Assembly: GCF_947367035.1 (NCBI RefSeq) | Contig: NZ_CANBCA010000008.1 | Location: 6,198-70,197 of the forward strand | Direction: 5' to 3' | Origin: an uncultured Helicobacter sp. | Lineage (GTDB): Bacteria > Campylobacterota > Campylobacteria > Campylobacterales > Helicobacteraceae | DNA length: 64,000 bases | Translations under genes and position numbers: made by a program | Notes under the pieces: model-generated | Database searches by the model: none | Told to the model about the DNA's origin: nothing | Seen by the model: only the letters and a program-made list of their open reading frames with translations | Part shown: one piece after another, positions 40,862 through 44,026 of the stretch | Position numbering within the stretch: the stretch's first letter is position 1 | Layout: the number at the start of each line of letters is the position of its first letter

Positions 40862-41092
40862 TTATGTCTCCAAAATCTTTTCTATACTTTCTACAAGTCC
40901 ACCCAAAGTTACAAAGTCCTCTAAGTCCAATGCGCTTAAATCTAGCTCCGCTCCTGTGCGATGCTCTAGGAAGTTTAACAACTCCAAAAACCCCATAGAA
41001 TCTATCACTTCAAAGGTATTTTTACTTTGCAAATCCCCCTCAAACGTGATTCCTTTCTCTTGCAAAAACTCTAAAATCTCTTGTTCTATCAT
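40862..41092 (-). CDS. acyl/peptidyl carrier protein 1
   Basis: 76 aa from MIEQEILEFL. The attachment-like motif is VIDSMGFLELLNFLE. Its ATG overlaps the stop of the adenylation fusion gene (ATGA at 41089-41092). Confidence 0.6.
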   Translation of the reverse strand: MIEQEILEFLQEKGITFEGDLQSKNTFEVIDSMGFLELLNFLEHRTGAELDLSALDLEDFVTLGGLVESIEKILET

Positions 41093-44026
41093 TGTCCTAC
41101 CTTTGTAATCAATTTTGCGCTTAAGAATTTTTCTATCCATTCTTGCATTATGAGTAAGTCAATATTGCAAATTTCAGCGATTTCTAGCAAGTCCTTTTTA
41201 CCATCACAATACATTAAAAGATTGCGCATATCCTTGATTTGATTAATGGAATCTTTAGTGCTAAGTGTGGGATAAAGCCCCCTTTTACCAAGTTGAGGTT
41301 CGCAAAGAATCGTGTTTTGGTAGATTCCATTGAGTTCCAAAGCACGCAAGATTCTCCAAACATACTGCAAACTATCTGCAAAACTCTGCGCACTGACTAG
41401 GCTTAAATCATCCAAAGAGGTGTGGTATTCCGGATATGCGCCAAACTTCGTGCGCATTAGGGTTGCAAAGGGTAAATCCACATTGGGCGCACAATATTGT
41501 CTCTCATCACTTCCTCTATCTAGGTAGCTGTATTCCTTAAAGCCCTTATAATAATGCGTTAAAACGTGCTTTGCCGCTCTATCGGCTAGATTGTTGCCCT
41601 CCCTAGAGTGCAGCACGGAATAGCTCCTAGAATCTCCTATGCAAGTCAGCACGAATCCCGCGATACAAGAGGCTTGTAAATGCTCTAAATGGCGACTTAG
41701 ATAATAAATACTTCCAATCGTTTCGGGTAGAAATAAAATGCGAATGGAGTAGGGATTCTCCCTTTGGCTTAAAATTTTACCTAGTGCGCAAGCAAGCGCG
41801 ATTCCGCTTAGTTCGTTATTTACCATTTGCGGGTGGCAAATATAGGTGCTAAAGACAATCTCTTGTTTGCTTTTGCCTTGAATGTAAAGTTCAGCATAGC
41901 TTAAGTTTCCGCTCTCTAAGTGACTATCAATGTGGATTTGAAACTTTTTTTGCGAATCTTTGTATTTTTCTTTCAAGGCGCAAAACTCCTCAAAAGAGAG
42001 GCAAAATCCCCACCGCTCTTTATAATAACTTGTGATATAAGGAATTGCACTGGGTTGATTCTCCAAAGAATACAAATGGGATTCTAGCTCCTTAAATGTA
42101 AGCGCACATTGGCAGGGAATGGAATATCCCATTAGGTGTAAATTGTTTTCCTTGAAGTCGCAGATTTTCTCTCCACTTGGTGTGAGAATGTAGGCATCTT
42201 TGACATTCCATTCCTTTGGAATCTCCCAATCAAATGCCTTTGTCCTGCTTGGCACTTCATAAATTTTAAGATTTGGGAGCAATTCTTGCAAGATTTTTAA
42301 AGTTTCTCGGTTTCCATTTCCGCTAAGAGAGCGCGGAATCTTAAATAATTTTTTGGTTAAAGCTAGCATTTCCTCACCATAGCTTAGAAAATCCATCGCG
42401 TCTTTGTTATGGGGTTTGGTTTGGGGAGGCTCGTTTGATTTTACGGGATTTTGCGATTCTAGGTTTTGGATTGCCCATTGCTTAATAGCCTTTCTATCCA
42501 CTTTACCATTAGAGTTTAATGGGAATTTTTCTAATGCAAGAATCTTGCTTGGTAGCATATAAAAGGGAAGTTTGGTGCGCAAGGCTTCTAAAATTTGTTT
42601 AGAATCTATTGCGGAAGTTTCACATATGCCATAAAGCGAGCTTAAGCCGTCCTTTTCTAATAGAATTGCGCGAGATTGTGTGCCACTTGCTTGATAGAGT
42701 GCATTATCAATTTCTAAAAGTTCTACACGGAATCCCTGCACCTTGACTTGCTCGTCTATGCGTCCGCAAAAGCAATAGGCGTTTAAAGTATCATCAAACT
42801 TGCCTAAATCTCCTGTTTTATACCAGCACACCTCATTTTCAACGATGAATTTTTCTCGTGTTTTGTCTGCGTCCTTGTAGTATCCTAGTGAAACTTGGTC
42901 ACCTCCGAGCCAAATTTCCCCAACTTCTCCTTGCGGAATCTCTAGCCCTTTTTCGTCTCTTAGGCTTATGTGTAAGCCTTTATAGGGTAAGCCAAGCGGT
43001 AGAATCTCGCAAAAGTGCGTAGGGATTCCGCATTTACCGATTCCACCCTCTGCAATCAAGCGATATTGTGTGAAGCTAATCGTCGCCTCTGTGGGACCAT
43101 AGAGATTATCTAAAAGTGCATTGGGCGCAACCTTAGCAAACTCCAAAGCAGCGGCAAGAGGTAGTGCCTCTCCGCAAAAGAGAGCGGCTCTTAGCATTGG
43201 AAGCGCATTGGGTTTAAGCGCTTTAAACTTTTGCAAATAGGCTAGGAGTGAGGGCACGACAAAGAGAATATGAATCTTTTTAGAAGCAATGAAAGGAATA
43301 GGATTGAAAAGGACTTTGTGCGGAATCACAACCAAAGTCGCTCCACAAAGCAAAGTGCAAAAAATATCGTGCATACTCAAATCAAAGGTTATATCAAAAA
43401 ATTGCGAGATTCTATCCTGCGGCGCGAAATGGTAGAGGGATTGGATTCTTTGGCAATAGTTTGTGAGGTTTGCGCGTGAGACTAAAACACCCTTTGGAAT
43501 CCCGGTGCTACCGCTTGTAAAGAGCAAATAAGCAGGGGCTAAATCCTGCACTAAATCTTGTTGCTTACTTTGTGTTTCTTGTTGTAGGTTCGGAATCGTA
43601 ATCCATTCGTGGTTAGGAAACTCGTCTTGCAAGGATTCTTCAAAACTAAAGATGAGGAGGCTTGGCAGAGAATCGGCGATTTTTCTAAAGGATTCTATGC
43701 AACTTGGGGCTAATATCATTGGCGCACCACTTGCGCGTTCTATGATATTTTTAAGTCTTTCTTTGGGAAATTTTGGATTTAAGGGAATAAAGGTGATATT
43801 GCCAAGAGTGCAGGCAATAATGCTGATATAAACTTCTAGCTCACGATACCCAAAGATAAAGAGGCTATTTCGCCCCCCCCCCCCCATTTTTAGCCTTTAA
43901 AAACGCAATGAGATTGAAGCTTTGGCTTTGGAGGTTTGCATAGGTAAGTGAGCGGTTCTCCACTTCTATGGCGATATTGTCCGCATAGGTTTCAAAGGCA
44001 TTTAAAAGATTATTTCTTAACTCCAT
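41089..44026 (-). CDS. amino-acid-type adenylation (ANL/DltA-like) domain fused to a COG4310 aminopeptidase-like domain with a C-terminal winged helix; interrupted by a poly-G(13) tract, so phase-variable and frameshifted as sequenced
   Basis: A-domain core motifs: YLLFTSGSTGIPKG, FDLSMHD, NLYGPTE, YKTGDLG, GRIDEQVKVQGFRVEL and NSNGKVDRKA. From M498 (nt 42396) the sequence LFKIPRSLSGNGNRETLKIL...VPSRTKAFDWEIPKEWNV is DUF2172/DUF4910-like. The first 47 codons (ATG 44026, MELRNNLLNAFETYADNIAIEVENRSLTYANL...) lie in another frame upstream of the tract. Confidence 0.75.
43873..43885 (-). repeat. poly-G(13) tract (C13 on the + strand) at codon 48 of the adenylation fusion gene
   Basis: Counted directly: 8 C at 43873-43880 plus 5 C at 43881-43885. 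G12 or G15 would join the two reading frames. Confidence 0.95.

Follow-up and report, generated by a model that had tools for sequence, protein, structure and literature searches.

A gene on the minus strand of a 64,000-nucleotide stretch of DNA from an uncultured Helicobacter sp. (assembly GCF_947367035.1, contig NZ_CANBCA010000008.1, positions 6,198 to 70,197; this whole stretch is called the window below) encodes an adenylation (A) domain of the nonribosomal peptide synthetase (NRPS) type that is covalently joined to a complete DUF4910 module, a member of the family of Cj1295 and CA_C2195. The host is an enterohepatic Helicobacter resembling H. rodentium. It is the domain architecture that is new, whereas the DUF4910 family and the kind of phase-variable glycan-modification cassette in which the gene lies were known before; no description of the fusion was found in the literature.

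Architecture of the fusion protein

The open reading frame (ORF) of 932 codons listed for this gene extends over 41089..43887 (minus strand) without an internal stop. Four Pfam domains are matched along it, in agreement with the covalent fusion that a preliminary description of this DNA had put forward. AMP-binding (PF00501) covers residues 10-337 (5.7e-50, far over the gathering score), DUF4910 residues 510-853 (5.3e-89, 297.7 bits, for a cutoff of 26.6), DUF2172 residues 559-655 (1e-31, 109.5 bits, cutoff 27), and the winged helix HTH_47 residues 855-928 (4.2e-21, 74.7 bits, cutoff 27.1). On the DNA, the A domain, which extends from motif A2 to motif A10 in the current frame and is recognized by Pfam, TIGR01733, PDB and Foldseek matches, occupies 42471..43887, and the complete DUF4910 module of 435 residues occupies 41092..42396, with the DUF2172 insert at 41923-42213 and the permuted winged helix at 41104-41325 (all on the minus strand).

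The junction was read directly from the DNA. The last base of the A10 motif (NSNGKVDRKAIKQW) is at 42471, a linker of about 26 residues rich in Pro, Asn and Lys (AIQNLESQNPVKSNEPPQTKPHNKDA; 42397..42470, minus strand) follows, and M498 of the ORF corresponds to the ATG at 42396, much as the preliminary description had them. A stop, a frameshift and a long homopolymer were looked for in the junction of the window gene, and none was found. The AlphaFold2 model of the whole fusion has a mean pLDDT (predicted local distance difference test) of 90.8 and a pTM (predicted template modelling score) of 0.54, with residues 481-493 below a pLDDT of 50; it thus predicts two confidently folded modules on a disordered tether, their mutual orientation being undefined. 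Among the fused homologues, identity to the window protein is 51-80% in the A half and 66-90% in the DUF4910 half, compared to 7-41% in the linker, whose length varies. The conservation of both halves, but not of the linker, indicates that both modules are under selection.

The adenylation domain and its probable substrate

The translation includes the core motifs FTSGSTGIPKG, FDLS, FCGE, YGPTE, YKTGD, GRIDEQVKVQGFRVE and NGKVDRK, the last of which contains the A10 lysine, and the Asp of FDLS, the A4 residue that binds the α-amino group, is present. The TIGR01733 model matches with 9.6e-77 and 258 bits, short of its full-length cutoff (317), since a frameshift described below takes away the N-terminal ~46 residues. 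The models of the DltA subfamily give 247.8 bits for a cutoff of 476 (NF003417) and 233.3 bits for a cutoff of 559.9 (TIGR01734); by its profile scores, the domain is DltA-like without being a DltA. In sequence, its matches in the PDB are LgrA, AlmE and DltA, while Foldseek with the model of the A half returned AlmE, VinM, EntF, LgrA and DltA, and IdnL7 is also among the structural relatives. AlmE activates Gly, according to the titles of its PDB entries, and we take VinM and IdnL7 to activate L-Ala and DltA to activate D-Ala.

The D-Ala pocket of DltA is formed by Asp197, a Leu, Met200 and Cys268, of which the Cys selects the D-enantiomer (PMC8972799). With positions set by motif anchoring, the Asp, Leu and Cys of this pocket (FDLS...FCGE) appear to be kept in the A domain of the fusion, and the Met to be replaced by His. 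The motif-anchored code DLHFLCLISK, with positions placed by GrsA numbering, is invariant in the fused homologues, and a similarly anchored DLH.LCLIA is found in A domains neighbouring DUF4910 in Myxococcales. A small amino acid similar to D-Ala or Gly is a candidate for the substrate, in line with the closest solved structures and with the published DltA pocket.

The DUF4910 half

The C-terminal 435 residues match CA_C2195 (PDB 3K9T), the only solved member of the family, with phmmer over residues 7-409 (E=1.9e-96). Together with the DUF2172, DUF4910 and HTH_47 hits, this bears out the family that the preliminary description had named for this half, and the homologue search also supports its statement that the module usually stands alone, family members typically having 420-450 residues. 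The AlphaFold model of this half superposes on 3K9T with a TM score of 0.94, a root mean square deviation of 1.8 Å and 39% identity (Foldseek). In 3K9T, one zinc is bound through His189, Asp195 and His324, and the catalytic Asp and Glu of the M28 peptidases are replaced (PMC4000134). The candidate metal-binding or catalytic residues of the fusion, in ORF numbering, are H685 (CHPQ), E692 (NNE), E722 (P721-E722-TIG) and H822 (Y-H822-TS). Sixteen diverse members all have the His, NNE, PETIG and YHTS, and GSDERQYC is also kept in them; NNE is present in 121 of 129 sequences scanned, and 3K9T has NDN (N-D195-N).

When the M28 signature was tested on the fusion, we found HPQ (Gln687) in place of the Asp of HxD and PE (Pro721) in place of the Glu of EE; the second zinc site is missing, and Pfam Peptidase_M28 gave no match on the fusion protein. 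Since the M28 catalytic Asp and Glu are replaced, the DUF4910 half is not a canonical M28 aminopeptidase, a function that we considered and rejected. Nevertheless, zinc amidohydrolases usually have a zinc site of this His/carboxylate/His type, with an invariant Glu close by. The family is very large and strongly conserved: all 8000 candidates scored significant, and identity amounts to ~53% from Helicobacter to Vibrio, Bacillus and Methanospirillum.

A G13 tract at the 5' end of the gene

The Pfam AMP-binding match begins at profile position 50, which indicates that the N-terminus is absent from the 932-residue ORF. The true 5' end lies at 43865..44026 (minus strand), where the ATG at 44026, ten bases past the stop of the upstream ABC-F gene, opens 53 codons (MELRNNLLNAFETYADNIAIEVENRSLTYANLQSQSFNLIAFLKAKNGGGGAK, followed by a stop) that include an A1 motif, LTYANL, within the first 46. 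This frame crosses a homopolymeric G13 tract (43873..43885, minus strand) and ends at the stop at 43865, so that the 46 N-terminal codons are out of frame with the rest; the tract is the switch position between the frame of ATG 44026 and that of the 932-residue ORF. The annotated ORF is therefore 5'-truncated, the true start being ATG 44026. A G12 or G15 tract would restore a protein of ~978 residues, and G13 is the OFF state for the full-length form.

The A1/A2 N-terminus that is out of frame here is in frame in homologues of 972-990 residues and in the allele P0391, which begins MELRNN...KNGGGGRNSLFIFGYRELEVY and comes from another public assembly. P0391 (ON) and the window protein, P0001 (OFF), share one 90% cluster, in which length forms of 932/935 residues occur. 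Similar pairs of length forms are found in H. rodentium (984 vs 937-939 residues) and in H. pullorum (990/991 residues vs a 943-residue form starting MGGGG). Runs of at least nine G are expected by chance 0.01 times per window, and three tracts of at least nine G/C are present, two of which lie in the cassette that the gene opens. The in-frame version in another public assembly indicates that the fusion gene is phase-variable, and the alleles compared suggest a homopolymer-driven contingency gene, a type well known in Campylobacter (PMC6321876). The window sequence may be OFF for the full-length protein, or the length of the tract may have been mis-called in the metagenome assembly.

A scan for promoters and terminators over 37000-46000 gave counts no higher than in shuffles. 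A 10/12 match at 44136-44107, upstream of the start, was not retained as evidence.

Two other G runs were observed in the window. A family-8 glycosyltransferase gene, probably for lipooligosaccharide (LOS), is split by a G11 tract at 11391-11401 (minus strand) into ORFs at 11364-11499 and 10584-11270; its start, ATG 11499, overlaps the hemC stop, and the match of the downstream ORF to Glyco_transf_8 does not begin until profile position 82. The gene looks phase-variable as well, and OFF here. A G8 run at 1891-1898 lies inside an in-frame ORF at 1373-2581 (plus strand, 402 residues).

Distribution of the fusion and lability of its junction

The search with the whole protein gave ~11 clusters at the 90% identity level that combine PF00501 and PF16254, all from Helicobacter, with 56-100% identity; the named carriers are H. 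rodentium, H. pullorum (384 member sequences), H. winghamensis and uncultured Helicobacter sp. We also ran HMMER with the whole protein against 1.84 billion representatives. Among the 150 best matches listed, which scored at least 712 bits and are mostly giant NRPSs with 5-15 A domains, the only one of fusion length was P0002, from Helicobacter; such a pass would miss fusions to distant domains of the acyl-CoA-ligase type. Queries with fragments (the C half, or the junction, residues 380-650) returned only stand-alone DUF4910 proteins and not the known fusions, although these contain the query at up to 100% identity; matches that far exceed the query in length appear to be lost, and such queries are uninformative on rarity. 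As a further comparison, 78 non-Helicobacter DUF4910 loci (L009-L086) were surveyed with 10-kb flanks; neither an extended ORF nor an adjacent AMP-binding gene was found in them, the gaps ranging from 809 to 7725 nt. We conclude that the fusion is real and that, within the reach of these searches, only a single lineage of enterohepatic Helicobacter carries it, in accordance with the preliminary description, which had called it unusual.

We considered whether errors of sequencing or assembly could have produced the fusion, or whether it is a pseudogene in decay made of two neighbouring genes, both of which we judge extremely improbable. Such an origin could be argued from the 5' frameshift caused by the G13 run, from relatives that have separate genes or a frameshift at the junction, and from the source, which appears to be a metagenome-derived Helicobacter genome. 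However, the window junction contains no homopolymer or ambiguity, numerous independent assemblies and isolates from at least four species share the same continuous frame (including the 384 sequences of the H. pullorum cluster), both halves are under strong purifying selection, and an in-frame full-length allele exists. As the fusion recurs across Helicobacter clusters, it is not an assembly artefact; conservation across species led us to reject this explanation, which is largely refuted.

Within the genus, the junction takes several forms. In one uncultured Helicobacter (L007), the two halves are separate genes whose stop and start overlap (ATGA), and in H. valdiviensis (L005) they are separated by a 30-nt spacer made up mostly of a G12 tract (7980-7991). 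The gene is fused in H. winghamensis (L002), with a C11 tract within the linker (11588-11598), and in Helicobacter sp. SUG33 (L008), where the ORF has 977 codons and the linker a C10 tract (4050-4059). Two assemblies of Helicobacter sp. MIT 11-5569 have a C12 tract in the linker (5736-5747 in L003, 1698-1709 in L004), resulting in an A protein of 556 residues and a DUF4910 protein of 430. The window gene has a tract-free linker and carries its switch at the 5' end instead.

From these states of the junction we conclude that the Pro-rich linker is the relic of a poly-C tract and that the fusion arose out of two translationally coupled genes. Phase variation in the linker, in the H. winghamensis group, would toggle between the bifunctional protein and the A domain alone; such a tract, placed in a linker and reducing a protein of two domains to one, is an unusual use of phase variation. 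Since close relatives encode both proteins separately, the fusion is not needed for the chemistry. The lability of the junction within the genus and the disorder of the linker in the model argue for co-expression or proximity in one pathway rather than for obligatory channelling of an aminoacyl group.

Gene neighbourhoods of the DUF4910 family

In the survey of the 78 loci, ORFs were clustered without prior assumptions and the clusters named by Pfam. The most frequent neighbour is an N-acyltransferase (NAT) of the Antibiotic_NAT family, similar to AAC(3), found in 55 loci and directly adjacent on the same strand in 46. A NeuB-type nonulosonic acid synthase is present in 40 loci, and ORFs similar to an acyl carrier protein (ACP) in 30, every one of which also has the NAT. 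DegT aminotransferases occur in 26 loci, AMP-binding enzymes in 23 (20 of them also with ACP and NAT), PseB-like dehydratases in 22, short-chain dehydrogenases/reductases (SDRs) in 18, formyltransferases in 8, and LuxE and LuxC in 4 each. The pair formed by DUF4910 and NAT is the conserved core, usually in a nonulosonic-acid locus, to which an adenylating enzyme and a carrier protein are a common addition. The Helicobacter fusion is the covalent extreme of this association of DUF4910 with adenylating enzymes. It is not the family's only link to adenylating enzymes and carrier proteins: 23 of the 78 loci with a separate DUF4910 gene carry an AMP-binding gene, 20 of them with ACP and AAC(3)-like genes. 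The supplement of Das et al. (PMC4000134) also lists A domains in the neighbourhood of the family's genes in C. jejuni 81116, where the A domain is C8J_1240, and in C. upsaliensis.

The accessory sets that recur near DUF4910 comprise an AMP-binding enzyme of the fatty-acyl type, an ACP, a FabG-like SDR, LuxE and LuxC, which suggests a widespread uncharacterised route to N-acyl-modified nonulosonic acids. In Vibrio cholerae (JACYRV010000002.1; L006, 9225-11293), an AAC(3)-like gene and a DUF4910 gene that overlap by 4 nt lie between integrase genes, with neither an ACP nor an adenylating enzyme nor sugar genes in the vicinity. Such an island indicates that the AAC(3)-like/DUF4910 pair can move as a unit.

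The cassette and its genomic surroundings

The fusion gene is the first of seven tightly packed genes on the minus strand, from 44026 to 37466, flanked by housekeeping genes, ABC-F and uvrB upstream and metNIQ downstream. The second gene (40862..41092) encodes a peptidyl carrier protein, PCP1, of 76 residues, with the serine motif IDSMGF and weak NCBIfam matches to DltC/ACP models. Its ATG overlaps the TGA of the fusion gene (ATGA) and is preceded by a Shine-Dalgarno sequence, AAGGTAGGA, which together indicate that PCP1 is translationally coupled to the fusion gene; PP-binding genes are found at the equivalent position in the loci L001-L005 and L087. The third gene (40144..40860) encodes a Cys-rich protein of 238 residues (CYKTCDSYCC ... 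CQPHAMRPLICRIYPYFP) for which neither Pfam nor NCBIfam gave a match. All Helicobacter cassettes examined encode it, but none of the 78 other DUF4910 loci does, and it may resemble the YkgJ/CxxCxxCC metal-binding proteins.

The fourth gene (39290..40147) encodes an AAC(3)-like NAT of 285 residues (Antibiotic_NAT by Pfam), to which we attribute the proposed acyl-transfer step. A G10 tract at 39328-39337 (minus strand) in the 3' tail of this gene affects only the last ~15 residues of the enzyme and the distance to the GTG with which the formyltransferase gene starts. In the two assemblies of Helicobacter sp. MIT 11-5569, the corresponding tract is G13 (L003, 8846-8858) and G14 (L004, 4808-4821), and the NAT gene is called with 303 and 298 codons, respectively. 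The remaining genes encode a formyltransferase-like protein of 273 residues with the motif NYHNSLLPLHRG (38456..39277), which matches Fmt, PurN, ArnA and sugar N-formyltransferase models, all below threshold; a second carrier protein, ACP2, of 75 residues (38236..38463); and, at the end of the cassette, a second AAC(3)-like NAT of 256 residues (37466..38236), both of the latter identified by domain profile searches. All of these genes are on the minus strand.

A core composed of the A domain and DUF4910, fused or separate, the PCP, the Cys-rich protein and the NAT is kept in H. winghamensis, MIT 11-5569, H. valdiviensis and an H. pullorum-like contig. It occupies the same ABC-F site in H. valdiviensis and the H. 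pullorum-like contig, and adjoins flgB, flgC and fliE in H. winghamensis and MIT 11-5569. Fragments of eptA follow the cassette in H. winghamensis, and in the window LOS glycosyltransferases lie at 49922-52182, ~6 kb from the cassette. Its phase-variable tracts identify the cassette as a contingency locus, which probably serves to diversify a surface antigen or a phage receptor.

In addition, four ORFs of the window, at 20776-21951, 21917-22627, 46372-46875 and 37101-37463 (all on the plus strand), have no Pfam match at E<=0.001, and a DUF4879 protein is encoded at 45775-46362 (plus strand), adjoining the ABC-F gene.

Proposed function and alternatives

A sugar modification was proposed from a neighbourhood analysis in the structure paper on CA_C2195 (PMC4000134). 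Cj1295 is a DUF2172 protein of 435 residues from C. jejuni, encoded by a gene that is phase-variable through a poly-G tract, and is required for 7-acetamido-5-(2,3-di-O-methylglyceroyl)amino-pseudaminic acid on flagellin (PMC3068675), as confirmed with a mutant (PMC7099621). Its proposed role is cleavage of the 5-acetamido group, making room for a different acyl group (PMC3068675). In 2026, cj1295 was listed as a 'putative transferase' correlating with pse genes across 16,130 genomes (PMC13130089).

We propose that the cassette is an N-acyl exchange system for a nonulosonic-acid glycan, a tentative reading to which we give somewhat less than an even chance. To begin with, and here our confidence is high, the A domain would adenylate a small amino acid and load it onto PCP1. 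The cassette would then change the N-acyl group of an amino sugar, most likely a precursor of pseudaminic acid (Pse) for flagellin glycosylation; we consider this step probable because, at other loci, NeuB, PseB-like and PseC-like genes accompany those for DUF4910 and because Cj1295 is needed for a Pse variant acylated at N5. UDP-GlcNAc (uridine diphosphate N-acetylglucosamine) supplies the N5 of Pse through its acetamido group, so that any other N5 acyl group needs a deacetylase. DUF4910 could be this enzyme, a mono-zinc amidohydrolase (His, carboxylate, His and the Glu of PETIG) that would remove the N-acetyl derived from UDP-GlcNAc and free the amine, an assignment that we hold with slightly less than even confidence. 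The AAC(3)-like NAT would finally move the aminoacyl group from the carrier protein to the freed amine, and the formyltransferase, ACP2 and the second NAT would add further decoration. The fusion would put activation of the donor and deprotection of the acceptor under one phase-variable switch, with a fixed 1:1 stoichiometry. The carrier species are, as we assume, Helicobacter with unsheathed, exposed flagella, as in Campylobacter. A wider version of the proposal, in which DUF4910 is the missing de-N-acetylase, or else a transacylase, with which bacteria and archaea swap the N5-acetyl of nonulosonic acids, together with AAC(3)-like enzymes that are fed by carrier proteins, unlike their relatives in aminoglycoside resistance, and in which tracts at the 5' end or in the linker switch between no enzyme, the A domain only and the bifunctional protein, so that one gene of a Helicobacter with unsheathed flagella would yield several surface glycoforms, seems to us rather doubtful.

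Several observations weigh against an exchange of this kind. AAC(3)-family enzymes use acyl-CoA donors, and a donor bound to a carrier protein is our proposal; the ten specificity positions of the A domain were placed by motif anchoring on GrsA numbering. Both the general base of M28 and the second zinc are missing, and hydrolysis would need another catalytic arrangement. A DUF4910 gene is found without a nearby NAT in 23 of the 78 loci. No pse, maf, neuB or flagellin gene was found within the 64-kb window, so the acceptor is deduced from other organisms. In C. jejuni, Cj1296/7 is out of frame in NCTC 11168 variants that still make the modified sugar (PMC3068675 Table 1); as it is dispensable in these variants, re-acylation does not always depend on an AAC(3)-like enzyme. 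Finally, the literature search found no biochemical function for DUF4910. The preliminary description treated the family as an orphan, which it is not entirely: a crystal structure and a proposal of sugar modification (PMC4000134) as well as the Cj1295 phenotype (PMC3068675) do exist.

Alternatively, DUF4910 could itself be the acyl-transfer catalyst, condensation-like, passing the aminoacyl group from the carrier to the sugar amine, after which the AAC(3)-like enzymes would N-acetylate or acylate the new α-amine. We regard this as rather unlikely, although the order A, DUF4910, PCP with translational coupling resembles that of NRPS modules with a tailoring or condensing domain next to the A and T domains, and glutaminyl cyclase, an M28-fold enzyme with a single zinc, is generally known to catalyse aminolysis. 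The classification of Cj1295 with 'putative transferases' in 2026 (PMC13130089) points in the same direction, and such an activity would account for Cj1296/7 being dispensable in C. jejuni. But no carrier protein is detectable in at least 48 of the 78 loci, and 55 are without an adenylating enzyme, which excludes transfer from a carrier as the family's general function; the near-universal partner has a bona fide N-acyltransferase fold and would become redundant; and a His/carboxylate/His site with Glu is typical of hydrolases, while the pathway would still need a deacetylase. We prefer a deacetylase to a carrier-dependent transferase because more than half of the loci are without a detectable ACP. 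The absence of an A domain or ACP at most DUF4910 loci also bears on a role in protection and deprotection, or in editing, in which the A domain would add an aminoacyl group and DUF4910 would remove it or hydrolyse a mis-loaded aminoacyl-S-PCP. VinM and IdnL7, which are among the closest structural relatives of the A domain, add small amino acids as transient protecting groups (in vicenistatin biosynthesis, VinM adds and VinJ removes alanine), and the C half has an aminopeptidase-like fold. Nevertheless, DUF4910 lacks the catalytic Asp and Glu of M28 as well as the second zinc, and what Cj1295 confers is the gain of an acyl variant, not the removal of a group, which makes this role very improbable.

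DUF4910 could also be non-catalytic, serving for docking, as a scaffold or for recognition of the carrier protein, the NAT or a nucleotide sugar. The loss of the M28 catalytic residues would fit, the winged helix and the insert domain were proposed to be recognition modules (PMC4000134), and the tight coupling to NAT genes in 46 of the 78 loci is compatible with a complex. We nevertheless find it quite improbable, given ~50-55% identity from Helicobacter to Methanospirillum and an invariant zinc-site cluster (H188, E195, PETIG, GSDERQYC, YHTS) typical of an enzyme active site; it is because this cluster surrounds the metal site that we favour a deacetylase over a scaffold. The preliminary description had itself suggested that the module might bind or process an aminoacyl intermediate, or act as a docking scaffold, which may still apply but is not favoured by the distribution data. 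As for the acceptor, the cassette could serve aminoacylation of lipid A/LOS, as with AlmE/AlmF/AlmG, or of an envelope polymer, as with DltABCD, instead of a nonulosonic acid. AlmE, a lipid A glycine ligase, is the best structural match of the A domain, no pse or neuB gene lies near the cassette in the window or in other Helicobacter loci, eptA fragments follow the H. winghamensis cassette, and the LOS glycosyltransferases are ~6 kb off in the window. Such a target appears unlikely to us, as the cassette has no AlmG-like or DltB-like membrane acyltransferase, the NAT and DUF4910 families sit in NeuB/PseB/PseC loci in half of the cases, Cj1295 acts on Pse, and the cassette adjoins flgB, flgC and fliE in two species.

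The fusion and the near-constant NAT partner point to N-acyl exchange with donors borne on carrier proteins. The fusion also occurs in H. pullorum, which is an emerging zoonotic pathogen. Proteins of the Cj1295 family occur in thousands of bacterial and archaeal surface-glycan loci, with ~50% identity between phyla, and are still without an assigned reaction 15 years after the C. jejuni phenotype; the fusion is a self-contained protein for in-vitro work on their function.

Comparison with known systems

Cj1295 belongs, according to the literature and not by direct sequence comparison, to the same DUF2172/DUF4910 family as the C half of the fusion. Like the fusion gene, its gene is phase-variable through poly-G and lies near AAC(3)-like (Cj1296/7) and carrier-protein genes. 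It differs from the fusion in being a stand-alone protein of 435 residues and in its acyl group, a di-O-methylglyceroyl and not an amino acid; moreover, it is located inside the pse/maf island, whereas the window cassette is located among housekeeping genes. CA_C2195 (3K9T, Clostridium acetobutylicum) shares with the C half the three-domain build, the loss of the M28 Asp/Glu and the single zinc site, and in its neighbourhood two AAC(3)-like genes flank an ACP gene (PMC4000134), but it stands alone and has NDN as zinc-ligand motif instead of NNE.

The DltA/DltC and AlmE/AlmF pairs resemble the cassette in having an A domain of the stand-alone type, a carrier protein of ~76 residues encoded directly downstream and small amino-acid substrates, and motif anchoring predicts a DltA-like FCGE pocket for the A domain of the fusion. 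Unlike in the Dlt and Alm systems, the window cassette has no DltB, DltD or AlmG transferase, its A domain is fused to DUF4910, and its partners are soluble AAC(3)-like enzymes. LpxC and LpxD follow the same logic as the one proposed here, a zinc deacetylase followed by N-acylation from a carrier protein; this is an analogy only, the folds being unrelated, and implies no homology. In the Aeromonas flagellin glycosylation island group II and similar nonulosonic-acid loci, pse genes are interleaved with genes for an ACP, an AMP-dependent synthetase, a 3-oxoacyl-ACP reductase, LuxE and LuxC (PMC7874193), the same accessory set as around the surveyed DUF4910 loci; unlike the A domain of the fusion, the adenylating enzymes there are of the fatty-acyl type and never fused to DUF4910.

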